From an uncultured Dehalococcoidales bacterium (GTDB taxonomy: Bacteria; Chloroflexota; Dehalococcoidia; Dehalococcoidales; CAZFRL01): a stretch of 64,000 nucleotides of DNA. Below are positions 17,821-41,757 of the stretch, one piece after another (within the stretch, counting starts at the first letter, position 1; each line of letters begins with the position of its first letter). Below the pieces are notes generated by a model. It had not been told where the DNA came from and searched no databases. It worked only from the letters and a program-made list of their open reading frames with translations. The DNA lies in the NCBI GenBank assembly GCA_964521325.1, contig CAZFRL010000001.1:13383-77382 (forward strand). Direction: 5' to 3'. Position numbers and translations under genes: made by a program.

Positions 17821-18644
17821 TATCGATTCACCTCTTTTACCTGTTCGTTTATCTCATCGGTCAAATTATAGCCGCTTATAGGATTCCCTTCAGCATCAAC
17901 GACTTTGCCCGCCATTATTTTAATTTTACCCTGGCTAAACGCCTTGAGGGTAGATGTTATTAGTGGGAATTCTCGAGCCAGCCCATGTTGCCGAATGAGC
18001 TTAAACAAGGGATTACTTTCGCCCGGCTCTCTTTTTATCGCTTCCACGGGATGCCCTTCTATTTCATCCCAATATCTATCAAATGGGTTGCCTCTAATGG
18101 AAAAGGTGCAGTAGGTTACCGGTGGGCCTTTGTCCAGTTCTGGGGTGACCAGGTGCATCATTACCCCTGTTTCCTCAGCCTTGCTGTCAATAAGTTGCCA
18201 GATTACCTCCTGCCAGCTTCCGGCAGGTCCGCCGGGGGCTGCCGGGTGAAGGTTAATCATATTGTATCTTCGGCACATCTCTTCTCCCACGATGAGCATG
18301 TAACCAGCCAGCACACACAGGTCAGGGTAAAAGTCTTGTAGCCGATTCATCACCTCTCTGTCGTAGTCAACTCTCCATGGTGGTAAGCTTTCTGACTGTC
18401 CCATAGTGAGATAGCCTTTCCCGGCTTTAAACTTGTGATAGGAGAAGCAGATAAGGGGGATATGATAATCCTGAGCCAGTCTGAGGAATAAATCGGTCTC
18501 TTCTGATTCGCCAGGCTCACGGTTACAGAAGATAAAGGCTATCTCAGCTTTAATCTTACCCAGCTTGATGTTGCTGTTTACTACCTGTAAAAGGTCTCTG
18601 GCTGCCTTATCTCTACCTGTGGAAAACCAGCCAATCCTATACAT
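17820..18644 (-). CDS. Formyltransferase-fold protein (PurN-like, atypical)
   Basis: IGWFSTGRD..., VLAGYMLIV and MINLHPAAPGGP resemble the PurN/Fmt N-terminal fold, but with a long insert and C-terminal extension (274 aa). Confidence 0.55.
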   Translation of the reverse strand: MYRIGWFSTGRDKAARDLLQVVNSNIKLGKIKAEIAFIFCNREPGESEETDLFLRLAQDYHIPLICFSYHKFKAGKGYLTMGQSESLPPWRVDYDREVMNRLQDFYPDLCVLAGYMLIVGEEMCRRYNMINLHPAAPGGPAGSWQEVIWQLIDSKAEETGVMMHLVTPELDKGPPVTYCTFSIRGNPFDRYWDEIEGHPVEAIKREPGESNPLFKLIRQHGLAREFPLITSTLKAFSQGKIKIMAGKVVDAEGNPISGYNLTDEINEQVKEVNR

Positions 18645-26727: not shown

Positions 26728-26837
26728 AGTGAAAGGGCATTACATTGTTCCCAAGTTGCAGCATAAACACATTGCCTAACCAAGAATACTTGATTACTGG
26801 TAGTACTACGCAAGGCTTGTGCTTGGATAATAATGGG

Positions 26838-26885
26838 TGGCGGAGAGGGTGGGATTCGAACCCACGCTCCGCTAAATGCGGAGAC
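26838..26885 (-). pseudogene. 3'-half fragment of tRNA-Ser (att-like direct repeat of the tRNA-Ser(CGA) 3' end)
   Basis: 48 nt (TGGCGGAGAGGGTGGGATTCGAACCCACGCTCCGCTAAATGCGGAGAC) match 41667-41714 with one mismatch. They cover CCA, acceptor 3' strand, T-arm and variable arm. No 5' acceptor strand (GGAGAGG) or anticodon arm follows. Confidence 0.75.
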
Positions 26886-26976
26886 TTAGTTAAAAACCCA
26901 GCTACTAAGCATTTTTGCCTAGTGTGCACGCCAGAATTAATTCATTTTGCTTACGCTGTGATGAGACACGTCTTTA

Positions 26977-27005
26977 TTGAAGGGTTAAGTAAAGTGGGTT
27001 ATAAT
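26977..27005 (+). promoter_or_regulatory. sigma70-type promoter for the response regulator/kinase operon
   Basis: TTGAAG (26977-26982), 17 nt, TATAAT (27000-27005). Confidence 0.5.
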
Positions 27006-27032
27006 TGAATTAGGGTAATAGCCAAGGATGTT

Positions 27033-27698
27033 ATGGATAAGATCAAGATTTTGCTGGCTGAAGACCACATCATAGTCCGGGAAGGTAGCCACGAGCTGGT
27101 GGAGAAGGAACTGGACATGGAAGTCGTTGGTGAAGCCGGCGACGGAGTGGAAGCAGTTGAGCTAGCTAACAAGCTCAAGCCGGATGTAATCATAATGGAT
27201 ATCGCAATGCCTAAGCTTAATGGCATAGAAGCTACCAAACAGATAAAGGCGCTTAACCCAGCTATGGCAGTGCTAGTACTTACTGCGTATGATAATGACC
27301 AGTACATTTTCGCTCTCCTGGAAGCTGGAGCAGCCGGCTATTTACTCAAGAATGCACGAGGACGTGAACTAATTGACGCTATTCGAGAAGTACATGCTGG
27401 TGAGTCAGTTCTTCACCCCACAATTGCCCGCAGGGTCATAGAGCGCCTAACCTCTCAGACATCCACTGGCACCCAGTCAAAAGGGACAGAGCCTCTTACT
27501 GAACGCGAGATGGAGGTATTGAAGTTAGCCGCCAAAGGTATAAGGAATAAAGATATCTCTGAGCAACTTTTCCTTAGCCCACGTACAGTTCAAGCCCATC
27601 TAGGAAGCATTTTTAACAAGCTGGGTGTTGCTTCGCGTACGGAGGCCGTATTATGCGCTTTAAGAAGAGGCTGGGTGGACCTGGAAAACCTTCCCTAA
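27033..27698 (+). CDS. NarL/FixJ-family response regulator (REC + LuxR HTH)
   Basis: ILLAEDH...DVIIMDIAMPKLNG receiver domain; C-terminal LTEREMEVLKLAAKGIRNKDISEQLFLSPRTVQAHL. Confidence 0.9.
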   Translation: MDKIKILLAEDHIIVREGSHELVEKELDMEVVGEAGDGVEAVELANKLKPDVIIMDIAMPKLNGIEATKQIKALNPAMAVLVLTAYDNDQYIFALLEAGAAGYLLKNARGRELIDAIREVHAGESVLHPTIARRVIERLTSQTSTGTQSKGTEPLTEREMEVLKLAAKGIRNKDISEQLFLSPRTVQAHLGSIFNKLGVASRTEAVLCALRRGWVDLENLP

Positions 27699-27711
27699 CC
27701 TTCAACCTTAT

Positions 27712-29196
27712 TTGAAGCGCTCAAAGGGCAATATGCAAACGGGTCTACATCTAGGAAGCCGAGCATCACGGACTATACGTAACACCCATTTCTGGATTGT
27801 GCTGGCACTATTTGCCATTGTTATAGTCCTACATTACCCGCAACAGATACTAAACACAGAGTCAGCATCTCTTTTCTCATTTATTGGTCTAACCAGACAC
27901 GCCCTAGAGCGGGTTCTTTTCCTGCTGCCGGTGACCTACGCCGGCTTTGTCTTTGGGATAAGGGCAGGGCTGGCTAGCTTAGCCGTGGCACTAATCATCA
28001 TGCTGCCTCGTGTTTTTCTAATCTCTCTACACCCCCCTGATGCTCTGCTTGAGACCTGTAGCATTATCGTCATTGGTGGTGTGGTGAACTTGTTGCTTCA
28101 GATGTACCGAAAGGAAAAGGAACGCTATCAACAAGCCCTTTCGGCAGTAGAAGCAGCCCACCAGGAATTGCAGAAGTCGCAGAAAAGCTATAAAGACTTA
28201 TTCGAGGATGCCTATGATGCTATTTGGGTTCACGACTTAGATGGTAACATTCAAGCAGCAAATAGAGCAGCCGCTAAGCTTACCGGCTATCCTCTGGAAG
28301 AATTGTTGAAAATGAATGTGAAGTCCTTTCTCAGTGATAAAACCCTAAGCTTAGCTAGAGAGGTAAAGGGTAAGCTAATTCAACACCAACCTATGGATCT
28401 TCCCTACGAGCAGATACTGATTAGGAAGGATGGCTCAGAAGCAATATGCATGATTACCACTAACTTGATTACCAGTGATGGTAAGCCAAAGGGTTTTCAA
28501 AATATTGCCAGAGATGTCACCGAAGAGAAACACATGCAAGAGAATCTGCGCTACTATCTACAGCACATTACCAAAGCTCAAGAAGAAGAGCGCTCACGCA
28601 TCGCCCGAGAGCTTCACGATGATACAGCTCAGGAACTAGTTGTACTATCACGTCGTTTGGATAGCTTTATTTCTACTGCTGATCACTTATCACCGCCAGA
28701 TATCACATATCTGGAGGATATGAGAGAGCAAACCGATAAGATATTGGATGAGGTGCATCGTTTTAGCCAAGACTTACGACCATCAGTGCTAGACGACTTA
28801 GGCCTCTTGCCCGCACTGGAATCGTTGACCTCTGACCTGACTGAGCACTTCGGCATAGTTATTGGTACGGGTATAGTCGGCCCTGTGTGCCGTCTCCCCC
28901 CCGAGACAGAGTTAGTACTGTTCCGCATTGCTCAGGAAGCATTGAGGAACGTGTGGAAGCACTCCCAAGCAACAAAAGCCTGGGTTACAGTAGAATTTAA
29001 GGATGATAGGGTCATTTTGAATATTAAAGATAATGGCGAGGGCTTTGCCTTACCACAGAGAGTGGGAGACCTACCCGGCGAGGGCAAACTTGGGCTAGCC
29101 GGGATGCAAGAGCGAGCGCGGCTCATTGGAGGTAATCTAACTATACAATCGGAGTTGGACAAAGGGACAACCATAACTGTTGAGGTATCGGTTTAG
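27712..29196 (+). CDS. Membrane PAS sensor histidine kinase (HisKA_3/NarX-DegS type)
   Basis: N-terminal TM helices, a PAS region (YKDLFEDAYDAIWVHDLDGN), the H-box ARELHDDTAQ and an HATPase_c end. The start may be the ATG at 27733 instead of the TTG at 27712. Confidence 0.85.
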   Translation: MKRSKGNMQTGLHLGSRASRTIRNTHFWIVLALFAIVIVLHYPQQILNTESASLFSFIGLTRHALERVLFLLPVTYAGFVFGIRAGLASLAVALIIMLPRVFLISLHPPDALLETCSIIVIGGVVNLLLQMYRKEKERYQQALSAVEAAHQELQKSQKSYKDLFEDAYDAIWVHDLDGNIQAANRAAAKLTGYPLEELLKMNVKSFLSDKTLSLAREVKGKLIQHQPMDLPYEQILIRKDGSEAICMITTNLITSDGKPKGFQNIARDVTEEKHMQENLRYYLQHITKAQEEERSRIARELHDDTAQELVVLSRRLDSFISTADHLSPPDITYLEDMREQTDKILDEVHRFSQDLRPSVLDDLGLLPALESLTSDLTEHFGIVIGTGIVGPVCRLPPETELVLFRIAQEALRNVWKHSQATKAWVTVEFKDDRVILNIKDNGEGFALPQRVGDLPGEGKLGLAGMQERARLIGGNLTIQSELDKGTTITVEVSV

Positions 29197-29221
29197 ACAA
29201 CCTCTGGCTCACTCAATTCCC

Positions 29222-30781
29222 TCATCCCATGACCGCACTGATATATGATGCTTGGTTTATTAGGGCATCTGTAGCCGGATTTACTATCGTATTAACAATT
29301 AGGCCGGGAAACAAGCTAAAGAAGATAATGATTGCGGTCAGGATACCCATGGCGGTCAACATCGACTTAGGAACCTCTTTTACATCTTTATATCGGGGTA
29401 ACTGAGGTCCTGTAAATGCTGATTGGAAGACCTTAACAAAGGAGGCCAAGGTTATAATTGATACCATAATAGCTATTATGGATAGTATCGGACTGAATTG
29501 ATAAACAGATTCATATATCATAATTTTTGAGGCAAAACCATTGAAAGGAGGAATACCAGCGATGGATAAAGCTCCGATTATGAAAAATATCGAGGTATAT
29601 TTCATATTATGAGCTAAACCGCCCATTTTATTGAGGTCTCTTGTGCCGATACGATGGAATATAGCCCCGGCAGTTAAGAATAGAAGCGACTTATACAAAG
29701 CATGGTTTATTACATGGAAAATGCCTCCACTTATAGCCTGTCTTCCATAAGCAGCCAGGGCTTCCGGGTTACCCAAAACAGCAAGCCCAACACCTACCCC
29801 TAGCAGCATATATCCGGTCTGGGAGACAGCGTGATAAGCCATCATTCGTTTGATATCTGATTGATAGATAGCCATAGTAACTCCAACGAACATGCTTAAC
29901 AATCCCATGATTATTATTATCCATCCTGTTGTAGCCGTGTTCAAAGTAACCCCGTAGAGGGTAAAGCAGACTCGAAAGAGGGCATACATACATGTCTGGC
30001 TGGCTACTACCAACATAGCGGTTATGCTCGCCGGGGCAACAGTATAGGTGTCTGGAACCCACATATGTAAAGGTACACTTCCCATTTTCATAGCAAGTGC
30101 TGCTATCAATATGACTAAAGCTATCTTATCCAGCATTGTATATTGCAGTACCTGGGCGAGAGCTCCTATATTGAGCAAGTTATACTGAGCGTAAAATAAG
30201 CCAATGGCAAATAAAACCATCAAAGCCGAAACTGCCGATATGACAATATATTTGAATCCGCCTTCTGCAGTATCAGCAAACCTTATTCTGAAGGCAGCCA
30301 AAGCTGCTCCCGAGAAAGAAAGTATTTCCAGGAAGACGAATAGGTTGAACATGTCTCCAGTTAGTTCCAGTCCTTCCATGCCTGCCGTTAGCAGGAGTAG
30401 AAGGACAAAAAATCTGCCTCTACCTGTTTCTTCTTTCATAAAGGAAAGGGAATATATAGCGGCTATTAAAGCAACAGTATCCGATATGATAGCCATAAAT
30501 GCGGACATAGCATCTACTTCCAGAATTATGCGCACTGGCACCGTGTAGTGTTCTGGGATACCAAGGGTGGCAAAAGGTGCACCAAGTGTATAGATGTGTA
30601 TTCCGTTGAAGAAAACATCCAGGGCTAAAAAAATAACCAGCAATTCTACAAAGGCTAGAATTGCTATTACGAATACATTCCTGGCTTTTTCGTTGGCCCT
30701 GCTTATTAAAGGAACTAAAAATCCTGCTAACAGCGGGAGCGCTATTACCAGGATTGGGGAGTGCACTAGCAGAATGTCCAA
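29222..30781 (-). CDS. Orphan proton-conducting antiporter-like subunit (MrpD/NuoN/NuoM family)
   Basis: 519 aa, about 14 TM. Motifs such as WVPDTY, MAYHAVSQTGYM and HVINHALYKSLLF are typical of Proton_antipo_M. No other Mrp/Nuo/Hyf subunits are nearby. Confidence 0.8.
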   Translation of the reverse strand: MDILLVHSPILVIALPLLAGFLVPLISRANEKARNVFVIAILAFVELLVIFLALDVFFNGIHIYTLGAPFATLGIPEHYTVPVRIILEVDAMSAFMAIISDTVALIAAIYSLSFMKEETGRGRFFVLLLLLTAGMEGLELTGDMFNLFVFLEILSFSGAALAAFRIRFADTAEGGFKYIVISAVSALMVLFAIGLFYAQYNLLNIGALAQVLQYTMLDKIALVILIAALAMKMGSVPLHMWVPDTYTVAPASITAMLVVASQTCMYALFRVCFTLYGVTLNTATTGWIIIIMGLLSMFVGVTMAIYQSDIKRMMAYHAVSQTGYMLLGVGVGLAVLGNPEALAAYGRQAISGGIFHVINHALYKSLLFLTAGAIFHRIGTRDLNKMGGLAHNMKYTSIFFIIGALSIAGIPPFNGFASKIMIYESVYQFSPILSIIAIMVSIITLASFVKVFQSAFTGPQLPRYKDVKEVPKSMLTAMGILTAIIIFFSLFPGLIVNTIVNPATDALINQASYISAVMG

Positions 30782-30854
30782 TTCTTCATCCTCTCATCTA
30801 CACTTAAGCCTTCAACCCACTCGTTGTTCAATGAGAGCTCATTCTGCTCGCAAG

Positions 30855-31082
30855 TTAGTTATGGATTTCGTATCGGTTTACGAGCGGTCCAACAATGCCA
30901 ATAACCCCGATAACTGCAATTAGAGCGGTCAAGACGATGCTCCATGTCGGTGATGGATTAAAGATAGCCGCTCCAAGGAACCCTACCCATATCACTCCTA
31001 GCACGAGCATAGCTATCGTCCACACCTTCATTGTTTTCTCCGTCCATTCCGTTGCTTGCGTCCTGCGAGTTATCGCTACCAT
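30855..31082 (-). CDS. Small 2-TM membrane protein
   Basis: 75 aa with two hydrophobic helices. GGGAGG Shine-Dalgarno 7 nt before the ATG; directly downstream of repeat copy A. Confidence 0.4.
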   Translation of the reverse strand: MVAITRRTQATEWTEKTMKVWTIAMLVLGVIWVGFLGAAIFNPSPTWSIVLTALIAVIGVIGIVGPLVNRYEIHN

Positions 31083-31120
31083 TTTCTTGCCTCCCTTCTC
31101 GTGAATTTGAATAGTCCTTT

Positions 31121-31262
31121 ACCCACTCTCAGCTTACTATATTGCTTACCAAGTGCCATCCGATATACAGCTTACTTTTGGCTACCAGAGCAACCTAATT
31201 AGAAGCTCATTTTACTAGTTGTTTTCTCCTATACGATACGTTGAAACTAGGCATTTTTGCCT
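31121..31262 (-). repeat. ~140-bp intergenic element, copy A (inverted relative to B and C)
   Basis: The reverse complement aligns by eye with 41336-41475 along its whole length. Conserved blocks: GCCTAGTTTCAAC, CTAGTAAAA, GAGCTTCTAATTAGG, GATGGCACTTGGTAAGCAATATAGTAAGCTGAGAGTGGGT. Confidence 0.8.
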
Positions 31263-31516
31263 ATATGCCACCAGGGTAGGCCATGATTCATAATTGCAGA
31301 GGCAGAGATTTTTTAGAAGGGAACAACCGTTATCGCCGATGTTCCAATGCAATAATCGATGATAACAAAGAGAAACTTATTCTGCTCCAGCCCAAGCCCA
31401 AAAATCTTGCCCTATACAAGGCATTGACCCTATCCATAACTCCCCAGATACTTCCCGGCAGCAACTATGACCGTCTTACCCATCACCCCAAATAAAGGTA
31501 ATTCCCCTATAGCTTA

Positions 31517-31653
31517 AGCAAAATTGCTTAGTCCCAGCATGCTCAGCTGGCGAAAATGCTCAGAACAAGGGTTTTCTAATTAGGGCTTTCCAGCAGTCAA
31601 AAATAAGCGGTATATCAGATGGCGCTTGGTAAGCAATATAGTAAGCTGAGAGT
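31517..31653 (+). repeat. ~140-bp intergenic element, copy B (upstream of the Hdr-like operon)
   Basis: The last 80 nt (TTCTAATTAGGGCTTTCCAGCAGTCAAAAATAAGCGGTATATCAGATGGCGCTTGGTAAGCAATATAGTAAGCTGAGAGT) differ from copy C at about 10 positions. The 5' end AGCAAAATTGCTTAGT matches AGTAAAATTGCCTAGT. Confidence 0.8.
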
Positions 31654-31714
31654 TAATAGTTGGGCTGGTGGGGGGTTCCGACTAGCCAGACTCAGCAAAA
31701 AGGGGAGGAGAGAA

Positions 31715-32056
31715 ATGTCAGCGAAGGCCTATTTCCTAATCAGTGTGGTAAGGGAATTTTGCCAGTGCCAGTATGACTATCAAGAGGCAGTGAGAGAGCT
31801 GGAAGCTATACCCGAGGTAAAATCCATCGAGCCTATCTTTGGTGCGTGCGACCTTATAGTGAAAGTGGAGGCACCGATAAGGCTGATTTCCGTAGCTGAC
31901 AAGATATTACCCAAGAAATGGGTCAAACGGTTAGTTATCCTCAAGGTTGAGCCCTTCCGATTTAACGGAAACTCCACGGTTAGAGCTCGCGAGCTTCTGA
32001 AAGTTCGAAGTCCCCTGACAACGGAGAGTAAAGGCCTAACGGAGCAAGTAGTATAG
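31715..32056 (+). CDS. Stand-alone Lrp/AsnC-type ligand-binding (RAM) domain protein
   Basis: KAYFLISVV...LEAIPEVKSIEPIFGACDLIVKVEAP fits the AsnC_trans_reg pattern, and there is no HTH. Start moved to the ATG at 31715 (GGGGAGGAG SD 5 nt upstream), because the track start 31619 lies inside repeat B. Confidence 0.5.
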   Translation: MSAKAYFLISVVREFCQCQYDYQEAVRELEAIPEVKSIEPIFGACDLIVKVEAPIRLISVADKILPKKWVKRLVILKVEPFRFNGNSTVRARELLKVRSPLTTESKGLTEQVV

Positions 32057-32148
32057 ATGCTCGCTATTAGGCTTAGCATTGTTGTCGTTTTGTTCCTCAT
32101 GGGTTACATCACTAAACCTAATTAATAGGATAGAGAAAGGGTATCAAT

Positions 32149-33312
32149 ATGGTAGCAGTGAATCAGGTGATAGAAACGGTAGATGCTTTAACGGTAGATG
32201 CTCTACTGGAGGAAGGTGGTAAAGCCCTTGAATTATGCTACCAATGTGGCCTTTGTACTGGCGCTTGCCCCTGGAATTTAGTGAGGAGTTTCACCGTACG
32301 TAGGATGATCCATCAGGCGCAGTTGGGTTTAGTTGATTTCGAAGACGAAGACATGTGGCTCTGTGCTACTTGTGGGGCCTGTGTTGAGCAGTGTCCTCGC
32401 GGTGTAGAAGTAATAGATATTATAAGGGCTCTGCGGAGAACAATAGTGGAGTTAGGTGTGGGTAAGGTTCCCGAGTCACTTCGGCTCGCAGCAAAAAATA
32501 TTTCTGGCGTGGGTAATCCACTAGGAGAGCCACTGGAGAAACGGGCGGATTGGGCAGAAGGCATGGGCGTAAAGGCATTCACTGAGGGTACTGAGTTACT
32601 ATATTTCCCCTGCTGTCTCTCTTGTTATGATAATCATATGATAGGGATAGCCCAGGCAACAGCGGACATCCTCAAGAAAGTAAGGGTGGATTTTGGCACC
32701 CTAGGCACTAGAGAAACCTGCTGTGGAGAAGCAATTCGCAAAGCGGGAAACGAAAGCCTATTCCAAAGCCTAGCCCAAAAGAACATTGCTACATTTGCTG
32801 AAAATGGCGTTAGGAAAATCCTGGTCAGCTCACCTCATTGCTATCACACCTTTAAGAATGAGTACCCTGAGCTTGGAAGCAACTTTGAGGTGATTCATTC
32901 TACTCAGTATCTATTAGGGCTTATCAAAGACCAGAAGCTGAAGTTTACCAAAGAACTGCCCAAGAGAGTCGTCTACCATGACCCATGTTACCTTGGACGG
33001 CATAATGGCATATATGATGAGCCTCGAGAGATTTTAAGGAGCATCCCCGGCTTGGAGTTGGTTGAATTTCAAGATTATGGTGAAGATAGTATCTGCTGCG
33101 GCGGCGGGTCAGGAAGGCTTTGGATGGACACAAGGAAGGGAGAAAGGTTCTCTGATATTAGGCTGGAACAGGCTATTGATTTAGGGGCTGAAACACTAGC
33201 TGTTGCCTGTCCCTATTGCATGTGCATGTTTAAGGGCAGTCAGTTGACAATAGCTAAAGGTACGACTATCGAAGTCAAGGATGTCTCAGAATTAGTCCAG
33301 GAGGCAATGTAG
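32149..33312 (+). CDS. HdrD-type subunit 1 (HdrC-like 2x[4Fe-4S] fused to HdrB-like double CCG domain)
   Basis: CYQCGLCTGACPW and CATCGACVEQCPRG, then CCG motifs ETCCGEA and DPCYLGRH...SICCGGGSG. Confidence 0.8.
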   Translation: MVAVNQVIETVDALTVDALLEEGGKALELCYQCGLCTGACPWNLVRSFTVRRMIHQAQLGLVDFEDEDMWLCATCGACVEQCPRGVEVIDIIRALRRTIVELGVGKVPESLRLAAKNISGVGNPLGEPLEKRADWAEGMGVKAFTEGTELLYFPCCLSCYDNHMIGIAQATADILKKVRVDFGTLGTRETCCGEAIRKAGNESLFQSLAQKNIATFAENGVRKILVSSPHCYHTFKNEYPELGSNFEVIHSTQYLLGLIKDQKLKFTKELPKRVVYHDPCYLGRHNGIYDEPREILRSIPGLELVEFQDYGEDSICCGGGSGRLWMDTRKGERFSDIRLEQAIDLGAETLAVACPYCMCMFKGSQLTIAKGTTIEVKDVSELVQEAM

Positions 33313-33329
33313 CCAGCAGGGGCATAAAT

Positions 33330-35309
33330 ATGGATAGAAATGGGCACAGGAAAATCGGAGTATATGTTTGCCACTGTGGTTTAAATATTGCAGGCACAGT
33401 GGATGTAGAAAAGGTGGCTGAATATGCCGGAACTCTAGACGCGGTAGTAGTGTCCCGTCACTACAGGTATATGTGTTCTGAGCCGGGGCAAGCAATTATT
33501 AAAGATGATATCAAACAGTACGAACTCAATCGAGTTGTAGTTGCCTCATGCTCGCCGCGAATGCATGAGCTTACCTTTCGTGCCGCTTGCCAGGATGCCG
33601 GACTGAATCCCTACCTATATGAGCACGCAAATATCAGGGAGCAGTGCAGCTGGGTTCACAAAAATAGAGAGTTAGCTACAGAGAAAGCCAAAGCCTTGGT
33701 GCGTGCTGCAGTAAGGCGTGTGTTCTACCAAGAGCCTCTGGAGGTTAAGGAAGCACCCGTTAATCCGAATGTGTTAGTCGTAGGCGGAGGTATCGCTGGC
33801 ATCCAAGCTGCTTTGGATATCGCTAACGGTGAGCACAAGGTCTATATGGTGGAGAGGGAGCCCAGTATCGGGGGACACATGGCCCAGCTCGATAGGACTT
33901 TCCCTACCTTGGATTGCTCCGAATGCATTCTTACCCCCAAGATGACTGAAGTTGGGCACCATCCTTTTATCGAGCTTCTAGCCTATAGCGAGGTAGAGGC
34001 AGTCTCAGGCTCTATAGGCAATTTTAAGGTGAAGGTCAGGAAGAAGGCACGGTATGTGGATGAAAGTAAATGCATCGGCTGCGGTGTGTGTGAGGAGAAA
34101 TGTCCGTGGAAGGTGGATAGTGAGTTTGAGGTCGGCTTAGCCAAGAGGAAAGCGATTTACATCCCATTTGCCCAGGCTATCCCCAATGTTGCCACTATCG
34201 ATAGGGAGCATTGCGCTTATTTCAAAACAGGTAAATGCCGAGCTTGTGAGAAGTTCTGCGAGGCTAAAGCTATTGATTTTGAACAGACGGATGAGAGTAT
34301 TGAAATAGAAGTGGGCTCAATCATCGTAACCACTGGCTACGATATATTTGACCCCTCGGTTATATCTCAATATGGCTATGGTAGATATGAAAATGTTATC
34401 ACCAGTCTTGAATTTGAGAGGATAACCTGTGCCGGAGGGCCAACTGGAGGGAGAATTCTCTTAAAGGATGGTCGGGAACCAGAAAGTGTAGCCATTATCC
34501 ACTGCGTAGGTAGCCGTGACCAGAAGTATCATGAGTATTGCTCTCGGGTTTGTTGCATGTATGGGCTTAAATATGCCCATCTGATAAGAGAGTTTACAAA
34601 TGCCAAAGTGTATGAAATGTATATTGATATGCGTTGCTTTGGAGAGGGGTATGAAGAGTTCTATAAGCGTGTATCGGAAGAAGGCGTCAAGTTCATAAGA
34701 GGAAAGGTGGCTAGGGTTACCGACCGCACTATAAGTGAAGAGGAGAAGGGAAAGCTAATTGTCCTTGTTGAAGATACCTTACTGGGGAAGATGATACGGG
34801 TTCCGGTAGATATGGTTATCCTATGCATCGCCCTAGAAGCGCGCTCTGACACAGAGCAAGTTGCCAAAATTTTTAGTCTTAACCAAAGAGCAGATGGCTT
34901 CTTCATGGAGCGACATGTCAAGCTTGACCCGGTAGCTACAGCCTCCGACGGGGTTTTTATCGCTGGCTGTTGCGAAGGTCCAAAGGATATCCCTGATACT
35001 GTAGCTCAAGCCTCAGCAGCGGCAGCCAAAGCCTTGTCGCTGATAAGCAAAGGCAGGATTACGCTCGAGGCTGCCACAGCCCATGTAGATGAGATTCTAT
35101 GCCAGGGCTGTGGGCGGTGTGAAGAAACATGTGATTTTCACGCCCCTAAGGTCATTCATAGGGATGGGCGCTGGGTTTCCACGGTAAATGAAACCGTGTG
35201 TAAGGGCTGCGGCGCCTGTGCCGTTGTTTGCCCTACGGGAGCTATGTCCATCAGGAACTTTACCCGGAAGCAGATACTCAGCATGGTCGATGCCTTAGTT
35301 GAGGTGTAA
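33330..35309 (+). CDS. HdrA-like flavoprotein 1 (full-length type)
   Basis: N-terminal VYVCHCGLNIAG cluster, VVGGGIAGIQAALD FAD fold, inserted ferredoxin CIGCGVCEEKCP/CRACEKFC, CSRVCCMYGLK, and C-terminal CQGCGRCEETC/CKGCGACAVVCP. Confidence 0.85.
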   Translation: MDRNGHRKIGVYVCHCGLNIAGTVDVEKVAEYAGTLDAVVVSRHYRYMCSEPGQAIIKDDIKQYELNRVVVASCSPRMHELTFRAACQDAGLNPYLYEHANIREQCSWVHKNRELATEKAKALVRAAVRRVFYQEPLEVKEAPVNPNVLVVGGGIAGIQAALDIANGEHKVYMVEREPSIGGHMAQLDRTFPTLDCSECILTPKMTEVGHHPFIELLAYSEVEAVSGSIGNFKVKVRKKARYVDESKCIGCGVCEEKCPWKVDSEFEVGLAKRKAIYIPFAQAIPNVATIDREHCAYFKTGKCRACEKFCEAKAIDFEQTDESIEIEVGSIIVTTGYDIFDPSVISQYGYGRYENVITSLEFERITCAGGPTGGRILLKDGREPESVAIIHCVGSRDQKYHEYCSRVCCMYGLKYAHLIREFTNAKVYEMYIDMRCFGEGYEEFYKRVSEEGVKFIRGKVARVTDRTISEEEKGKLIVLVEDTLLGKMIRVPVDMVILCIALEARSDTEQVAKIFSLNQRADGFFMERHVKLDPVATASDGVFIAGCCEGPKDIPDTVAQASAAAAKALSLISKGRITLEAATAHVDEILCQGCGRCEETCDFHAPKVIHRDGRWVSTVNETVCKGCGACAVVCPTGAMSIRNFTRKQILSMVDALVEV

Positions 35310-35311
35310 CA

Positions 35312-35743
35312 ATGAATGAATTTGAACCTGTAATTATAGCCTTTTGCTGCAATTGGTGTACTTATGCAGCCGCCGATATAGCCGGAACAAGCCGTATCCA
35401 GTATCCGCACAATGTGAGTATCGTGAGGGTAATGTGTAGTGGGATGGTAGACCCCATATATGTTCTCAGGGCCTTTGAGGGGGGCGCTGACGGGGTCATC
35501 ATTGCCGGCTGTAGTTACGTAGACTGTCATTACATCAATGGGCCAGTAAAGTGCGATGCCATGTTTGAAAGACTGAAGGGGATAGTTCATACCCTTGGCT
35601 TAGAGGATGAGCGCTTGAGGCGCGAAATGATATCTACCTCGGAGTCGATAGTATTTGCCCACGTAGTTGAGGAGATGGTTGGCCAGCTTAAAAAAGTGGG
35701 TCCCTCACCTTTCAGAAAGGTCAGAGAGGACATCACAGTATGA
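35312..35743 (+). CDS. MvhD-like [2Fe-2S] electron-transfer subunit
   Basis: IIAFCCNWCTYAAADIAG...MCSGMVDP...IAGCSYVDCHY is typical of the methyl-viologen-reducing hydrogenase delta subunit family. Confidence 0.85.
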   Translation: MNEFEPVIIAFCCNWCTYAAADIAGTSRIQYPHNVSIVRVMCSGMVDPIYVLRAFEGGADGVIIAGCSYVDCHYINGPVKCDAMFERLKGIVHTLGLEDERLRREMISTSESIVFAHVVEEMVGQLKKVGPSPFRKVREDITV

Positions 35744-36888
35744 CCTTAGATGATATTATCAAGGAAACCAACACGTTCTATTGCCTAGAGTGCGGCAAAT
35801 GTTCCAGCATATGCCCTATATCCAGATATAACCCGGCTTACTCACCACGGGTGATGGTGGAACACGCACTTTTAGGACTGGAAGATGATTTGGTTTATAA
35901 CCGGGAGTTATTTTCTTGCTTGACCTGTTATGCTTGCCAACTCAAGTGTCCTTCCGATGTCAACTACCCGCTCTTCATCCAGAAAATGAGAGCCATAGCC
36001 TCAAATAATGGTGAACACGGGGAGTGCGCTCATTCCGGAACCTTGCAATCTCTGACACGACTCGTGACGAATCCGGCCGTCAAGCAGAGGAGACTGGAAT
36101 GGCTATCTGATGAATTTCGTACCTCTGACCGGAGTGATGTCCTTTTCTTTGTTGGTTGTGCCCCCTATTTTGAGCACATCTTTGACTTTGAGACAAAAAG
36201 CATTGACATTGTAAAAGCTAGCTTAAAAATACTCAATTACTTTGGTATCGAGCCTGTGCTGCTTCCAAACGAGAGATGCTGTGGGCACGACATGCTCTGG
36301 ACGGGAGATGTGGAGACCTTCAGGAGACTGGCTGAGCATAACGCAGCTCTGATAAGTGAGTCTGGAGTAAAAAAGATAATCTTCTCCTGTCCCGAGTGTT
36401 ACCAGACGTTCAAAGAGAATTACCCCAATTATGTGAAGATAGATTGCGAGTTACAGCATATCAGCGAATTCCTATCTGAGGCGATAGAAAAAGATGAATT
36501 GAGTTTTAAGGAGACTAAAAGAAAAGTAACCTACCACGACCCCTGTAGACTCGGTAGGCATATGGGAATATACGAACCGCCAAGGAAAGTGCTTGAGGCG
36601 ATTCCAGGCATAGAATTGGTTGAAATGAAACATAGTAAAGAGGAATCTCTTTGTTGCGGCACCAGCGCTTTTACTAACTGCGACTTATACTCAAAACAGA
36701 TAAGGGTTGAGCGGTTGCTTGAAGCGAAAGATACTGGTGCCGAGACTCTCATAACATCATGTCCGAAATGTCAGATTCACTTCAGATGTGCCATGGTAAA
36801 TAAAGGAGAGGAAAAGGGGCCGGACGTCGAGATTGAGGTTATGGATATGGTGAATTTAGTGGCAAATGCTTTGGAGGAGAAGAATTAA
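35740..36888 (+). CDS. HdrD-type subunit 2 (HdrC-like + HdrB-like CCG domains)
   Basis: CLECGKCSSICP and CLTCYACQLKCP, then ERCCGHD and DPCRLGRH...SLCCGTS. 4-nt overlap with the mvhD-like gene. Confidence 0.8.
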   Translation: MTLDDIIKETNTFYCLECGKCSSICPISRYNPAYSPRVMVEHALLGLEDDLVYNRELFSCLTCYACQLKCPSDVNYPLFIQKMRAIASNNGEHGECAHSGTLQSLTRLVTNPAVKQRRLEWLSDEFRTSDRSDVLFFVGCAPYFEHIFDFETKSIDIVKASLKILNYFGIEPVLLPNERCCGHDMLWTGDVETFRRLAEHNAALISESGVKKIIFSCPECYQTFKENYPNYVKIDCELQHISEFLSEAIEKDELSFKETKRKVTYHDPCRLGRHMGIYEPPRKVLEAIPGIELVEMKHSKEESLCCGTSAFTNCDLYSKQIRVERLLEAKDTGAETLITSCPKCQIHFRCAMVNKGEEKGPDVEIEVMDMVNLVANALEEKN

Positions 36889-39635
36889 TGACTGAAGCTG
36901 CGAATAGCCCTGCCTTAGTAATCGGCGGCGGTATAGCTGGCATCCAAGCCTCTATTGACCTGGCTAATATGGGCTTTCCGGTTTATCTGGTGGAGAGATC
37001 ACCCAGTATCGGGGGCAGGATGGCTCAGCTAGACAAGACCTTCCCCACTAATGATTGTGCCATGTGCATCCTTGCCCCCAAGATGAATGAGTGTTATCGA
37101 CACCAAAATATCAGGGTATTAAGTTATTCAGAAGTCGCTGAGGTTGGGGGTGAACTGGGTAACTTTGAAGTCAAGATACTGAGGAAACCAAGGTATATCG
37201 ATGAGACCAAGTGTACTGGTTGCGGGGAATGCGCCCAGGTATGCCCGGTCGAAGTCAAAAGCGAATTCGACCAAGGGATGGGCAACAGAAAAGCAATATA
37301 CAAACCGTTTGCTCAAGCGATTCCCAACCTTTATGTCATTGATAAAAGGGGAACTCCTCCTTGCAGAGTAGCCTGTCCTGCCGGGGTGGATATCCAGGGC
37401 TATGTTGCCCTCATTTCTCAGGGCAAGTTTAAAGAAGCACTCAGTCTCATCAGACAGAAGATTACTCTACCCGCTACTGTCGGTAGGGTATGCACTCACC
37501 CATGTGAGACGGAGTGCAATCGGGGGGAAGTCGATGAACCAATTGCCATCGCCGCTCTTAAACGGTTCGTGGCTGACTATGAGCTGACTGTGGGGGTGGA
37601 GGAGGTGACACCTGCCCCCCGGACCAAAGACGAGAAAGTAGCTGTTATCGGTTCTGGGCCAGCTGGCTTAACTGCGGCTCATGATTTAGTGCTCATGGGC
37701 TACGAGGTAACCATTTTTGAGGCGCTGCCTGTCCCCGGTGGTATGTTGGCAGTAGGCATTCCTGAATACCGCTTACCCAAGAAGGTGCTTCAAACCGAGA
37801 TTGAGGCTATCCAGAAACTGGGGGTCGAGATAAAATTAAATAGCCCTGTAGGCAAAAACGGCTTGACTCTAGATGACCTCCGGCAACAGGATCACAAGGC
37901 GATTTTCATTGCCGTGGGTGCCCACCGGAGTATGAAGCTTGATATCCCCGGCGAGAACTTGAAAGGTGTCTATCACGGTGTCTCCTTCCTGAAGGATGTC
38001 AACCTTGGGAAGAAGGTTATGGTTGGGGAAAAGGTAGCAGTAGTTGGTGGTGGCAATGTAGCCATTGATGCTGCTCGAACCGCCCTCCGCCTCGGCTCCA
38101 GAGAAGTAACTATTCTATATCGTAGGTCGAGGCAGGAGATGCCAGCAAGTCAAGAGGAGATAGCGGAGGCTGAGCATGAGGGGGTTAAGATTCATTACCT
38201 AGCTACCCCAGTTACAATTCTGGGCAAGGATAGGAAAGTCGTGGGTATGAAGTGTATTCGGATGAAGCTGGGAGAGCCTGATGCCAGCGGTAGGAGACGA
38301 CCTATACCCATTAAGGACTCAGAGTTTACTATCGATGTGGACATGGTTATTCCAGCCATAGGTCAAGTGCCCGACCTCGCCTTCCTACCCGAAAATAGTA
38401 GCTTCCAAGTATCACCCAGAGGAACATTTGAGGTCGACAGCAAAAGCCTAGCTACCGCTATACCTGGGGTGTTTGCTGGCGGAGATGCTGTGCTTGGACC
38501 GGCCTCTGTGGTACAGGCTATAGCAACCGGACACAGAGCAGCCACTGCCATTGACAACTACCTGCAAGGGGAAACACTCTTGCCTGAAGAAGAGCCACTC
38601 CCGACTGTAACCATTGAGGATATAGACCTAACCGACGTAGAGAAGAGAAATCGGTTGGTAATGCCTACTATTCCCTCCAAAGAGAGGTTAGCCGGCTTTA
38701 CCGAGGTAAACCTTGGCCTCAACCAGGAGATGGCTATAGAGGAAGCAAAGAGATGCCTAAACTGTGGTGTTTGCTCTGGATGCCGGGAGTGTGAAAAGGT
38801 TTGCCAGGCTAAGGCTATAAACCACGAAATGAAGGAGGAATACCTGAACCTGAATGTTGGTAGCATTATCCTGGCTACCGGACTGGACTTTTATGATATT
38901 TCAAAGCTTGGAGAATATGGCTACGGAAGGATAGCCAATGTAATCACTGCCATTGAGTACGAGAGGCTGACCTCAGCCTCCGGTCCTACCGAGGGTGAAC
39001 TCAAGCGCCCTTCAGATGGGAAGATTCCATCCAATACAGCTTTCATTCAGTGTGTTGGCTGCCGTGATTTCAAAAACAAGCCATACTGCTCAAGCGTATG
39101 CTGTATGTGTGCTACCAAAGAGGCAATACTAGCCTATGAGCACCAGCCGGGAACAAAGTCAACCATCTTCTATATGGACCTGAGAGCGGTGGGCAAACGC
39201 TTCCAAGAGTATGTCACCCGAGCCAAAGAAGAATACAATGTAACGTATGTCAGAGGCCGTCCTGGGAGAATCGAAGTAAACCCTGAAAATGGTAATCCGA
39301 TTATCTGGCATGAGGATACTACTACCGGAGAAACGAAACCGTTTGAGACCGAGCTAGTGATTCTCTCCCAGGCTATGACTCCCTCCGGTGGCATTGAAAG
39401 GCTAGCCAGCATATTGGGCATAAGTCTAGACCAACATGGGTTTGCCGAAGTCCCAGATAAGTTATTCTACCCTCTGGACACCACGAGACCTGGTATCTTT
39501 GCCTGTGGCTATGCTCATAGTCCACGGGATATCCCTGACTCCGTGGTTCAAGGCTCAGCGGCGGCGGCTAGAGTGGCTGAAGCGGTGGCATTTAGAGTGC
39601 CTAGTCTGGCAACGGGAGGTGTTTACCGTGACTGA
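36888..39635 (+). CDS. HdrA-like flavoprotein 2 with inserted GltD/NfnB-like NAD(P)H oxidoreductase module
   Basis: Starts directly at the FAD fold (VIGGGIAGIQASID, no CHCG domain). The insert has PPCRVACPAGVDIQGY...CTHPCETECNRG, VAVIGSGPAGLTAAHDL and VAVVGGGNVAIDAART. It then returns to an HdrA-type C-half (CVGCRD...CSSVCCMCATKEA). Confidence 0.8.
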   Translation: MTEAANSPALVIGGGIAGIQASIDLANMGFPVYLVERSPSIGGRMAQLDKTFPTNDCAMCILAPKMNECYRHQNIRVLSYSEVAEVGGELGNFEVKILRKPRYIDETKCTGCGECAQVCPVEVKSEFDQGMGNRKAIYKPFAQAIPNLYVIDKRGTPPCRVACPAGVDIQGYVALISQGKFKEALSLIRQKITLPATVGRVCTHPCETECNRGEVDEPIAIAALKRFVADYELTVGVEEVTPAPRTKDEKVAVIGSGPAGLTAAHDLVLMGYEVTIFEALPVPGGMLAVGIPEYRLPKKVLQTEIEAIQKLGVEIKLNSPVGKNGLTLDDLRQQDHKAIFIAVGAHRSMKLDIPGENLKGVYHGVSFLKDVNLGKKVMVGEKVAVVGGGNVAIDAARTALRLGSREVTILYRRSRQEMPASQEEIAEAEHEGVKIHYLATPVTILGKDRKVVGMKCIRMKLGEPDASGRRRPIPIKDSEFTIDVDMVIPAIGQVPDLAFLPENSSFQVSPRGTFEVDSKSLATAIPGVFAGGDAVLGPASVVQAIATGHRAATAIDNYLQGETLLPEEEPLPTVTIEDIDLTDVEKRNRLVMPTIPSKERLAGFTEVNLGLNQEMAIEEAKRCLNCGVCSGCRECEKVCQAKAINHEMKEEYLNLNVGSIILATGLDFYDISKLGEYGYGRIANVITAIEYERLTSASGPTEGELKRPSDGKIPSNTAFIQCVGCRDFKNKPYCSSVCCMCATKEAILAYEHQPGTKSTIFYMDLRAVGKRFQEYVTRAKEEYNVTYVRGRPGRIEVNPENGNPIIWHEDTTTGETKPFETELVILSQAMTPSGGIERLASILGISLDQHGFAEVPDKLFYPLDTTRPGIFACGYAHSPRDIPDSVVQGSAAAARVAEAVAFRVPSLATGGVYRD

Positions 39636-41307
39636 GGTTCGCATTGGTGTCTTCATATGTCACTGTGGCAAGAATATCGGAGGCTACGTGGACGTCCCCC
39701 AGGTGGTGGAGTACGCCAGACAACTGCCGAACGTTGCCTATGCTGAGCATAACCTATACACGTGCTCCGAAGAGGGAACCTCCTCAATAAAGAAGAGTAT
39801 CCTAGAATATACCTTAAACCGGGTTGTAGTAGCCTCCTGCACTCCGAGAACCCATGAGCCATTATTTAGGACTGCCTGTGAGGAAGCCGGCCTCAACAAG
39901 TATCTATTTGAATTTGCTAACATCAGGGAGCAAGTCTCCTGGGTTCATATGAACCTGCCACAGGAGGCCACTGAAAAAGCTAAGAGCCTGGTTAGAGCAG
40001 CGGTAGCTAAAGCCCGATTACTTGAGCCATTAGAAGAAGTTGAGGTGGAAGTGCTTCCATCCTGTATGGTAATCGGTGGCGGTATAGCCGGAATGAGCGC
40101 AACTTTAAATCTAGCGAAACAAGGTTTCGATGTTCATCTTGTAGAAAAAGGGGCAGAGCTTGGTGGTACTCTGTTGGATCTCCATAAGCTCTTCCCCACT
40201 AACAAGGAAGCAAGAGACTTAATTAATCCGCTAATACACGAGTTGAAGGAACACGATAGGATAAAAACCTATCTTGGGACGAAAGTTAAAGAAGTAGCCG
40301 GGTTTATCGGCAATTTCGATGTTACTTTAGACCACGGAGATAGGGAGAGCAAGCTTAATGTAGGCACGATTATAGTTGCCATTGGAGCTACGGAATTCAA
40401 ACCAATAGGCCAATATAGTTATGGAGAAATGACAGGGGTCCTTACTCAACTGGAGCTGGAAAAGCAAATGAAAGAGGGTACGGTCGATGGCCAGAATATT
40501 GTGATGATCAACTGTGTTGGCGCTCGGGTTGCTGAGAGAGCATATTGTGGCCGCTTCTGCTGCCTAACTGCAATAAAGAATGCTGCGCTCATTAAGGAAA
40601 ATAACCCAGCGGCAAAGGTATGGATTCTTCATCGTGATTTGATGGCTTACGGAGTGGATTTCGAGGATTACTACCGGAAGGCTATGGAAGCGGGTGTCAG
40701 ATTCATCCGTTACAGCCTGACAAGCCCGCTCAAGGTTATCGGGAATGGGAGGGTTGAACGGGTGAAGGTATACCACCAATTAATACAGAAGGAAATTGAG
40801 CTCCCCTGCGATACAGTGGTACTCACCACTCCCCTTATTCCCCACGTTGATAATGAGGAGCTCTCCAAGATGCTCAAGGTTCCCTTGGGCCAGGAGGGTT
40901 TTTTCCTAGAAGCACACCTCAAACTACAGCCGGTAGAATTTGCTACAGATGGCATCTATATCTGTGGCTCGGCCCGCTGGCCTGTAGAGGTGACTGAGGC
41001 TATCTTCCAGGGTTATGCCAGTGCCTCAAAGGCAGCAATACCCATGAGCAGGGGCTATGTGAGACCTGAGGCCATAACCGCCTCTGTAAATAAAGATGCC
41101 TGTGCCGGCTGTGGTATCTGTGTTACTCTGTGCCCATATAGCGCCATAACGATAAACACTGAGAATGGCAGAAGGGTTTCCAATGTTATTTCTGCGCTGT
41201 GTAAAGGTTGCGGAACCTGTGGAGCTGCCTGTCCCTCCGGGGCAATCTCAATGAACCACTTCACCGATGAGCAGCTCTTCGCCCAAATAGAGGCTTTGGT
41301 GGCGTGA
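39628..41307 (+). CDS. HdrA-like flavoprotein 3 (lacks the inserted ferredoxin domain)
   Basis: Start reassigned to the GTG at 39628 (GGGAGG 8 nt upstream, GTGACTGA overlap with the previous stop). Begins VTEVRIGVFICHCGKNIGGYVD, parallel to HdrA-1. Also MVIGGGIAGMSATL, CGRFCCLTAIK, and C-terminal CAGCGICVTLCP/CKGCGTCGAACP. Confidence 0.8.
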   Translation: MTEVRIGVFICHCGKNIGGYVDVPQVVEYARQLPNVAYAEHNLYTCSEEGTSSIKKSILEYTLNRVVVASCTPRTHEPLFRTACEEAGLNKYLFEFANIREQVSWVHMNLPQEATEKAKSLVRAAVAKARLLEPLEEVEVEVLPSCMVIGGGIAGMSATLNLAKQGFDVHLVEKGAELGGTLLDLHKLFPTNKEARDLINPLIHELKEHDRIKTYLGTKVKEVAGFIGNFDVTLDHGDRESKLNVGTIIVAIGATEFKPIGQYSYGEMTGVLTQLELEKQMKEGTVDGQNIVMINCVGARVAERAYCGRFCCLTAIKNAALIKENNPAAKVWILHRDLMAYGVDFEDYYRKAMEAGVRFIRYSLTSPLKVIGNGRVERVKVYHQLIQKEIELPCDTVVLTTPLIPHVDNEELSKMLKVPLGQEGFFLEAHLKLQPVEFATDGIYICGSARWPVEVTEAIFQGYASASKAAIPMSRGYVRPEAITASVNKDACAGCGICVTLCPYSAITINTENGRRVSNVISALCKGCGTCGAACPSGAISMNHFTDEQLFAQIEALVA

Positions 41308-41335
41308 TAAGGCAAGGGGTATAAATAGTGTGATA

Positions 41336-41475
41336 AGTAAAATTGCCTAGTTTCAACATATTGGTAGTAGAAAATAACTAGTAAAACGAGCTTCTAATTA
41401 GGTCTTTCCAGTAGTCAAAGATTAGCGTTATAGCAGATGGTGCTTGGCAAGCAATATAGTAAGCTAAGAGTGGGT
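41336..41475 (+). repeat. ~140-bp intergenic element, copy C (downstream of the Hdr-like operon)
   Basis: Same orientation as copy B. Core GATGGTGCTTGGCAAGCAATATAGTAAGCTAAGAGTGGGT. No plus-strand gene follows until 41844, and two minus-strand tRNAs intervene. Confidence 0.8.
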
Positions 41476-41529
41476 ACGGAGCCAGACGAGATTAGCTGTT
41501 GCGAAATGAGGAACTAATGGTGGGAATAG

Positions 41530-41618
<89 letters not shown>

Positions 41619-41666
41619 ATAAATAATACCTGGGCGAGAAGTCGGATTATATTCTATGTAAATGGG

Positions 41667-41757
41667 TGGCGGAGAGGGTGGGATTCGAACCCACGCTCCA
41701 CTAAATGCGGAGACCGCTTTTCGAGAGCGGCACCATGAACCACTCGGACACCTCTCC
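41667..41757 (-). tRNA. tRNA-Ser (anticodon CGA)
   Basis: Reverse complement GGAGAGGTGTCCGAGTGGTTCATGGTGCCGCTCTCGAAAAGCGGTCTCCGCATTTAGTGGAGCGTGGGTTCGAATCCCACCCTCTCCGCCA. Anticodon loop CTCGAAA, long variable arm, encoded CCA. Confidence 0.9.

Follow-up and report, generated by a model that had tools for sequence, protein, structure and literature searches.

DevR of Mycobacterium, a response regulator, binds several palindromic boxes cooperatively, the proximal one beside the -35 element, and autoregulates its own operon. The locus that we compare with such systems is located on a 64-kb stretch of DNA from an uncultured Dehalococcoidales bacterium (GenBank assembly GCA_964521325.1, contig CAZFRL010000001.1, positions 13,383 to 77,382 of the forward strand). 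This whole stretch is referred to here as the window. In Escherichia coli, NarL occupies inverted heptamers (7-2-7) as a dimer, and its activation of narG proceeds from the -89 and -195 regions (PMC4549865). The window contains an element of ~145 base pairs (bp) in copies labelled A, B and C and in one truncated copy. Copies A and B lie between a unit with MrpD-like membrane genes and an Hdr-like operon. We consider it likely that this element is a module of promoter and operator that sits beside a NarL-type two-component system (TCS) and was copied in front of several operons. A literature search gave no account of this regulon or motif.

In the initial annotation of this DNA, copies A and B were described as an inverted pair of the same element of ~140 bp. 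As a repeat, the pair is sound. Its arms (31125-31229 and 31549-31653) span 105 nucleotides (nt) and are 77% complementary, a pairwise alignment of A and B gives 78% column identity, and the 36-nt core proposed in that annotation occurs three times in the window, against 0.00 expected (100 shuffles). Extent and number had to be revised, since a profile search widens both copies to the limits listed in Table 1 and two further copies had been overlooked. The first of these, copy C, is full-length and 81-82% identical to A and B. It is directed at the 3' ends of tRNA-Ser(gga) and tRNA-Ser(cga), has no credible open reading frame (ORF) downstream and is absent from relatives of the L009 type (related loci are designated by L numbers). 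The second, a truncated copy, lies 80 nt upstream of the response-regulator gene, is interrupted by a remnant of a tRNA-Ser 3' half (26832-26885) and is homologous to the Acs-proximal copy of L009. Both A and B end shortly before outward-facing genes, as had been noted. The distance to the ATG is ~38-42 nt for A (ATG at 31082) and ~57-61 nt for B (ATG at 31715), and a Shine-Dalgarno sequence (GGGAGG and GGGGAGGAG, respectively) is located upstream of each ATG.

A profile built solely from eight GTDB orthologs was scored against the window. It ranks B first (110.4 bits, E = 4e-33), followed by C (81 bits), A (76.6 bits, E = 1e-22) and the truncated copy (33 bits, E = 3e-9), and finds nothing better than E = 0.1 in the window beyond these four. 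Copy B is therefore the ortholog of the element in related genomes, whereas A and C are paralogous duplicates.

An exact search with a 22-nt core gave no matches in the GTDB representative genomes and three contigs in a metagenome scan. Relatives were collected with the 113-amino-acid (aa) protein encoded behind copy B as query: the contigs of its homologs were retrieved and GTDB genomes were scanned with their alignment. This resulted in ~13 independent loci from Dehalococcoidia, Dehalococcoidales or Chloroflexota. In all of them, including eight GTDB Dehalococcoidia loci, L015-L018 and L019, the element immediately precedes the first small-protein gene of the Hdr-like operon (E = 2e-38 to 2e-5). 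Orthologs of the response regulator (57-78% identity) and a HisKA_3 kinase adjoin the element in the window and in L001, L009-L019, L021-L028 and L032, usually in a divergent arrangement (<-kinase <-regulator / element -> operon). The promoter of the regulator gene (TTGAAG, TTGAAA, TTGAGA or TTGAGG, 17 bp, TATAAT) is kept in 12/12 loci and lies mostly 12-23 nt beyond the first box of the element. Every full copy except C aims at a gene start that is 40-70 nt off (~265 nt in L032). Within the window and ~250 kb of related sequence, copies occur solely at TCS-linked loci.

The genes behind the element vary between relatives. In the close relatives L009-L014, two tandem partial copies precede an acetate-CoA ligase gene that is divergent from the regulator gene, and in L001 the pair of regulator and element precedes the gene of a TPR protein. 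L032 encodes a regulator with 76% identity and carries a full element (102 bits) before a homolog of the 75-aa protein gene and a stand-alone MrpD-like gene. This unit occupies the site before AIRS-TsaE-TsaD at which L015 has the Hdr-like operon. The proposal of the initial annotation that the units behind A and B share a special regulatory input agrees with the presence of the same conserved module before both. Their suggested co-regulation also gains comparative support, as the TCS and element of relatives precede either an Hdr-like operon or, in L032, a unit of small protein and MrpD-like protein. Among the inputs that had been suggested, the evidence favours an activator site.

Table 1. 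Positions of the element copies, their parts and the neighbouring features in the window
Feature	Positions	Strand	Remarks
Truncated copy	26881-26953	-	profile positions 2-75 only (boxes only); Box I 26938-26953; Box II 26906-26921
Response-regulator promoter	26977-27005	+	canonical sigma-70 promoter, TTGAAG-17-TATAAT, 23 nt beyond Box I
NarL/LuxR-type response regulator	27033-27698	+	Pfam; full-length, LuxR-type output domain
Sensor kinase	27712-29196	+	~4 predicted transmembrane segments, PAS, HisKA_3, HATPase (Pfam, transmembrane scan)
MrpD/MbhH-like antiporter subunit	29222-30781	-	stand-alone, 519 aa; unit behind copy A
75-aa protein	30855-31082	-	two predicted transmembrane segments; unit behind copy A
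Copy A	31120-31263	-	toward 75-aa membrane protein and MrpD-like genes
Copy A, Box I	31248-31263	-	
Copy A, Box II	31216-31231	-	
Copy A, -35-like hexamer	31154-31159	-	ATGGCA
Copy A, -10-like hexamer	31131-31136	-	TAAGCT
Copy A, predicted start	near 31124	-	
Spacer	31264-31514	.	251 bp, two regulator-promoter relics head to head
Copy B	31515-31658	+	upstream of Hdr-like operon; ortholog of relatives' element
Copy B, Box I	31515-31530	+	
Copy B, Box II	31547-31562	+	
Copy B, -35-like hexamer	31619-31624	+	ATGGCG
Copy B, -10-like hexamer	31642-31647	+	TAAGCT
Copy B, predicted start	near 31654	+	
Hairpin	31658-31692	+	predicted 5' untranslated region of Hdr-like operon, downstream of module; -19.1 kcal/mol, z = -2.1
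Hdr-like unit	31715-41307	+	behind copy B
113-aa protein	31715-32056	+	resembles AsnC ligand-binding domain; first gene of copy B unit
Copy C	41334-41476	+	full-length, orphan, 27 nt past stop of last Hdr-like gene
Copy C, Box I	41334-41349	+	
Copy C, Box II	41365-41380	+	
Copy C, -35-like hexamer	41437-41442	+	ATGGTG
Copy C, -10-like hexamer	41460-41465	+	TAAGCT

The anatomy of the element was derived from 12 diverged copies for geometry and column counts, and from 12-15 diverged copies for the block alignment. The element extends from about -139 to +5 relative to the predicted start. Each element has two 16-bp palindromes of the form TARGC-N6-GCYTA, namely Box I (TAAGC-N6-GCYTA in the alignment) and, 31-33 nt downstream in 12/12 copies, Box II (TARGN-N6-GCTTA). 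Their centres lie near -99.5 and -131.5 and their geometry is 7-2-7-like; the box of copy B, TAAGCAA-AA-TTGCTTA, is readable as a 7-2-7 inverted repeat. The boxes are followed, in this order, by the blocks AATTAGGTCTTTCC, ATAAGC, CAGATGGCA and GTAAGCT. The hexamer ATGGCA sits within the CAGATGGCA block, and exactly 17 bp on, again in 12/12 copies, comes TAAGCT, of which T1, A2 and T6 (TAnnnT) are kept throughout (12/12). The distance from Box I to this -10-like hexamer is equally constant (125-127 nt, 12/12).

The palindrome is an element-specific sequence. A search of 181 kb of non-redundant loci for exact matches to TARGC-N6-GCYTA gave 14; 13 of these fall within elements, which make up 1.5% of the bases, and the 14th is itself a very diverged short copy of the element. 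All three exact matches in the window are located in elements, with one mismatch in copy C. Two very diverged short copies of the module with one box each were found in L023 (1302-1450 and 6590-6780). Their box lies exactly 72 nt from a -35-like hexamer (ATGACG or ATGGCG), as Box II does in the full element. They precede genes of paralogous small membrane proteins of ~50 aa, the second of which is followed by acetyl-CoA synthetase. In the boxes, conservation follows the individual half-sites, as is usual for protein sites, and the halves do not co-vary in the manner of RNA stems. In A and B, Box I has stayed a perfect palindrome despite the decay of the adjoining regulator promoter, which indicates that the boxes are kept for the target promoter.

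As far as comparison of the sequences tells, the element is non-coding DNA under purifying selection. Its mean pairwise identity among nine orthologs is 69%, compared to 27% for the adjacent 5' untranslated region (5'UTR), which equals shuffled sequence, and 50% for third codon positions, measured in the best-conserved part of the neighbouring gene. The paralogs of the window differ as much from one another (75-82%) as from the orthologs of other genomes (66-81%), so that unconstrained positions look saturated. Similarity among paralogous copies ends at ~+5 of the predicted start, which fits a promoter with upstream sites and not a transcribed leader.

The pair ATGGCA-17-TAAGCT matches 7/12 consensus positions, and a consensus promoter scan, which does not call this pair, finds no canonical promoter within the element. 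Canonical promoters do occur elsewhere, such as that of the regulator gene (TTGAAG-17-TATAAT) and that of a tRNA gene (CTGACA-16-TATAAT). Their presence there and their absence from the module fit activator dependence. On the opposite strand inside the element, manual inspection found no hexamer pair with a conserved final T.

Three promoter features of the initial annotation are seen in the window but are not kept across its relatives. The proposed -10 box TATAGT is present in all three window copies, but its A2 varies (G or T) in diverged orthologs; it was displaced by the overlapping TAAGCT, which retains TAnnnT. The dyad GCTT-N3-AAGC occurs in A and B, whereas C reads GCTT-N3-CAAGC, and it was dropped as a conserved feature because it is not kept outside the window clade. 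The GG-N10-GC spacing, which had been read as a sigma-54 signature, is likewise found in all three window copies but does not hold across homologs. There the GG is kept in 11/12 copies and the -12 GC in 5/12 only, with CC, TC, CT, GG or GT in the others, and the TT preceding the -12 GC is present in 0/12.

The mechanism that we favour would operate as follows. The module would consist of a weak sigma-70-type core promoter (ATGGCA-17-TAAGCT) that is poorly used by RNA polymerase alone, a conserved proximal block (AATTAGGTCTTTCC...ATAAGC...CAGATGGCA) and the two upstream palindromes. A signal would be supplied by the membrane-anchored PAS/HisKA_3 kinase, after which the phosphorylated NarL-family regulator would bind the palindromes as dimers and probably also weaker proximal repeats resembling half-sites. 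The bound regulator would then recruit RNA polymerase, either directly or via cooperative occupation of the proximal block. In that block, the TAAGC-like half-sites follow no clean helical periodicity, and we claim no specific proximal sites. The ancestral order would be <-kinase <-regulator / module -> small protein -> Hdr-like operon. In the window clade, the module would have been duplicated together with a piece of the regulator promoter and would now also stand before the 75-aa/MrpD-like unit (copy A); in close relatives, a duplicated module would stand before acetyl-CoA synthetase as well. On the best reading, this duplication would unite the MbhH-derived antiporter subunit, acetyl-CoA synthetase and the Hdr-like operon in one regulon. 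We infer the transcription start, the binding protein and the sign of regulation from sequence.

Several points weigh against this mechanism. The core promoter is our own assignment, with the partial consensus match and the missing scan call given above. The box centres are far upstream for simple class I activation, so that the reading must assume cooperative proximal binding or bending of the DNA. The proximal block, notably CAGATGGCA, is conserved beyond the needs of a -35 alone, and another factor or an alternative sigma could be involved. Furthermore, all three full copies of the window have a degenerate Box II, and copy C lacks a target and faces two convergent tRNA genes. The linkage to the TCS is circumstantial as evidence for the identity of the binder.

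The main rival explanation concerns a different protein acting on the same DNA. The element would still be a promoter or operator, but not one for the adjacent regulator; it would be used by an alternative sigma-70-family factor (GATGGCA-N16-GTAAGCT) or controlled by some other transcription factor that binds the palindromes or the proximal block. Both CAGATGGCA and GTAAGCT are near-invariant blocks, unlike the canonical promoters of the same genomes, and the pairing of regulator and boxes is itself only inferred. However, the NarL-type TCS is the only regulator conserved beside the element in all of ~15 lineages, no sigma or other regulator gene is conserved nearby, and the palindrome has the 16-bp inverted-repeat form that is typical of the NarL family. 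We regard this rival as unlikely, although it is the one to be taken most seriously.

It is very improbable that the element functions through its structure as a cis-regulatory leader RNA or small RNA whose transcription begins further upstream. Such an RNA leader had been among the inputs suggested initially, and a weak promoter-like site (TTGACC-17-GATACT, 31424-31452) is indeed found upstream of copy B, Box I can form a 6-bp hairpin, and some targets have long leaders (e.g. ~265 nt in L032). The tests of structure, however, are without signal. RNAalifold on the 12 diverged copies yields -1.5 kcal/mol, with a covariation of -0.04 and 0 compensatory pairs, and the three window copies, folded singly, have z-scores of -0.31, -0.09 and +0.95. 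With Rfam, at gathering as well as E-value thresholds, the only matches in the window are two tRNAs, and the element has none. The boxes were rejected as RNA hairpins, given A-C mismatches in several orthologs and a covariation not above that of shuffles: pairing holds in 75.8% of cells versus 74.3% in shuffles, and 127 of 500 shuffles did as well. In addition, several orthologs leave 12-15 nt between Box I and the divergent regulator -35, which is little room for an upstream promoter, and promoter-like sites in the region are not commoner than in shuffles. The hairpin listed in Table 1 lies beyond the module; at its position, orthologs have different sequences, several of them with hairpins by eye.

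More improbable still is a dispersed or mobile repeat without a dedicated regulatory role, similar to miniature inverted-repeat transposable elements (MITEs) or repetitive extragenic palindromes (REP). Several copies are present within 15 kb, including the orphan C, the truncated copy and the tandem partial copies in relatives, and recombination between copies seems to have rearranged the locus. The element nevertheless occupies the same orthologous position before the same operon in genomes whose proteins are only ~50-60% identical, and its full copies, except C, point at gene starts. Neither terminal inverted repeats nor target-site duplications were detected: no inverted repeat was reported within a copy, and duplicated bases are not shared by the flanks of A, B, C and L001. 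Neither the window nor three unrelated loci of 11-14 kb contain further copies.

The least probable explanation is a sigma-54 promoter (TGGCAC-N5-..GC.) with the upstream palindromes as enhancer sites, for which the window copies match 7-9/11 consensus positions at the correct GG-N10-GC spacing and have dyads ~100-130 bp upstream of the start that resemble enhancer-dependent promoters, but which is contradicted by the poorly kept -12 GC and its missing TT, by a linked regulator with a LuxR-type output domain and not AAA+, and by the lack of enhancer-binding-protein or RpoN motifs (GAFTGA, ESELFG and RpoN box) in six-frame translations of the window and 312 kb of related loci.

The spacer that separates A from B bears on how the module was copied. 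It had been described as lacking a convincing gene, and it does hold no credible one: its 70-aa ORF is without Pfam hit and shows an indel compared to the close relative L002, by which a protein-coding spacer was ruled out. It is not featureless, however, but contains decayed relics of a promoter and gene. The B side (minus strand, 31514 to ~31400) aligns to the -35/-10, 5'UTR and first codons of the regulator (TTATGGATAGGGTCAATGCC versus TTATGGATAAGATCAAGATT). The A side retains a -10-like remnant (GGTAGGCCATGATTCATAATTG versus GGTGGGTTATAATTG). A part of the regulator promoter was thus copied along with the module, which argues for segmental duplication and against transposition.

Other rearrangements were observed around the element. 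The tRNA remnant that interrupts the truncated copy (26832-26885) is 54 nt long and duplicates the 3' half of tRNA-Ser(cga) along with 6 nt of the flank downstream; it is 98% identical to 41661-41714. This remnant and the intact tRNA (41661-41757) bracket a block of 14.8 kb that begins with the regulator gene and extends as far as copy C and tRNA-Ser(gga). A direct repeat of a tRNA 3' part at both ends would fit a tRNA-associated genomic island, but no integrase or recombinase was found among the Pfam-scanned ORFs of this block (26832-41757). Its left junction cuts through the element copy with only ~4-5 nt of microhomology (GTCT), which suggests illegitimate recombination; the block looks like the result of this process rather than of site-specific integration.

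A second case is the mosaic contig L003 (Ga0315545_1138716, 1-1018). Its positions 1-347 match L009 4861-5208 (start of acetyl-CoA synthetase and element copies), 330-389 match window positions 31246-31305, and 381-1006 match 41027-41652. Of the two junctions, one falls within an element box and the second at an overlap of 9 nt. L003 represents either a strain that lost the regulator-to-Hdr cluster after recombination between copies, or a chimeric assembly. At L003 563-565 a TGA replaces the Cys codon of the window (~41209-41211) in the CKGCGTCG motif of the last HdrA-like gene, which could be a selenocysteine variant or a sequencing error.

With respect to the genes involved, the nearest solved structures of the response regulator are VraR, DevR, NarL and DesR. 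The MrpD-like protein has its closest homologs (72-79% identity) among the subunits of Mbh-type [NiFe]-hydrogenase operons (L029-L031), which also include MnhE/F/G, MbhD/E, MnhB/C, hydrogenase subunits, HycI and HypA/B. These operons are without the element, so that the element was discarded as the normal context of an MrpD-like gene and the gene in the window is best seen as a recruited solitary paralog. In L030, the Mbh-type operon is located directly behind V-type ATPase genes. The leader of ~265 nt between the element and the p75-like gene in L032 (1977-2100; also L033 1-150) contains a 36-nt tandem repeat (3.5 copies, 67% matches) followed by apparent GC-rich hairpins, and has no Rfam match.

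Behind the 113-aa protein gene, the Hdr-like operon encodes two HdrD/TfrB-like proteins, HdrA, MvhD, a GltD-HdrA fusion and a third HdrA-like protein. One to four tandem homologs of the 113-aa protein come before the Hdr-like genes in relatives (L015, L019, L022, L024-L027), and in L015-L018 one of them is fused to a ferredoxin/HdrC-like protein. The three HdrA-like genes are linked by nucleotide repeats (60-78%) at the FAD-binding motif and a second conserved segment (33774-33826, 36915-36967 and 40066-40118; 34978-35031 and 39520-39573), a sign of their paralogy within the operon. The first HdrD-like gene has, close to its 5' end, a 15-nt tandem duplication in perfect register (AACGGTAGATGCTTT / AACGGTAGATGCTCT, 32175-32204). 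Elsewhere in the window, a 45-nt inverted repeat (18407-18451 / 18502-18546) with 71% complementarity and a 50-nt gap lies in or beside the ORF at 17820-18644 on the minus strand.

The proposed organization is ordinary regulon wiring and does not imply a new mechanism of gene control. It would provide a first candidate regulon, open to testing, for uncultured marine-sediment Dehalococcoidia, for which genetics is not available. This regulon would comprise a NarL-type TCS, the probable operator TARGC-N6-GCYTA and a promoter layout, and the profile can be used to search for targets in any metagenome-assembled genome. It would have grown by duplication, in which the whole promoter module was copied and relics of the regulator promoter were left behind. 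The targets bear on energy metabolism, namely a multi-HdrA complex of the electron-bifurcation type, a solitary Mbh-derived antiporter subunit and acetyl-CoA synthetase, and their co-regulation would be a useful clue to energy conservation in these organisms.

A more far-reaching interpretation is that the shared module marks, beyond co-expression, a physical and functional unit, in which the stand-alone MbhH-derived antiporter-like subunit, the small protein with two predicted transmembrane segments and the soluble HdrA/MvhD/HdrD/GltD-like complex form a membrane-coupled, ion-translocating Hdr machine. We consider this doubtful. 'Hdr-IFO' complexes have been postulated for marine Chloroflexi (PMC5736913); if the interpretation is true, the unit would supply their missing membrane part and would be switched on by a membrane/PAS-sensing TCS. 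In a weaker version, the TCS and the module may form a conserved 'socket' of which the downstream cargo is swapped between lineages, such as the Hdr-like genes of L015 and the MrpD-like genes of L032.

Finally, the module can be placed among the known types of multi-site and multi-copy promoters. With sigma-54 promoters that have upstream activator sequences it shares the footprint of ~140 bp, the upstream dyads and, in the window copies, GG-N10-GC, but the -12 GC is not conserved and no signal of an enhancer-binding protein or RpoN was obtained. Repeat-borne promoters (MITEs, REP and enterobacterial repetitive intergenic consensus (ERIC) sequences) are similar in that a promoter-bearing unit exists in multiple copies, recombines between copies and apparently brings new genes under one control. 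The module differs from these in being without transposon hallmarks, in having an ancient orthologous intergenic region as its primary copy, and in that its duplicates carry relics of the promoter of the neighbouring regulator.

The Mycobacterium DevR/DosR promoters with their tandem Dev boxes resemble the module in that DevR is among the closest solved homologs of the regulator, and the kinases of some relatives have GAF domains, as in DevS/DosT. Box sequence and spacing differ, the kinase of the window has a PAS domain and ~4 transmembrane segments, and cooperativity is proposed here by way of explanation. The E. coli NarL/NarP promoters (narG, fdnG, napF and yeaR) share a regulator with receiver and LuxR/GerE helix-turn-helix, a HisKA_3 kinase partner, 16-bp inverted repeats readable as 7-2-7 and multiple sites per promoter. 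For narG, activation from far upstream is documented; for the module, it is proposed. In contrast, the half-site is TARGC(A) here and TACYYMT in E. coli, the lineage is Dehalococcoidia, and no FNR- or IHF-type partner was identified for the module. The signal differs, and the regulon comprises an Hdr-like complex, an antiporter-like subunit and acetyl-CoA synthetase instead of nitrate respiration. On the family of the linked regulator and on a promoter-specific operator of inverted repeats, the module would belong with the multi-site promoters of the NarL/DevR type.

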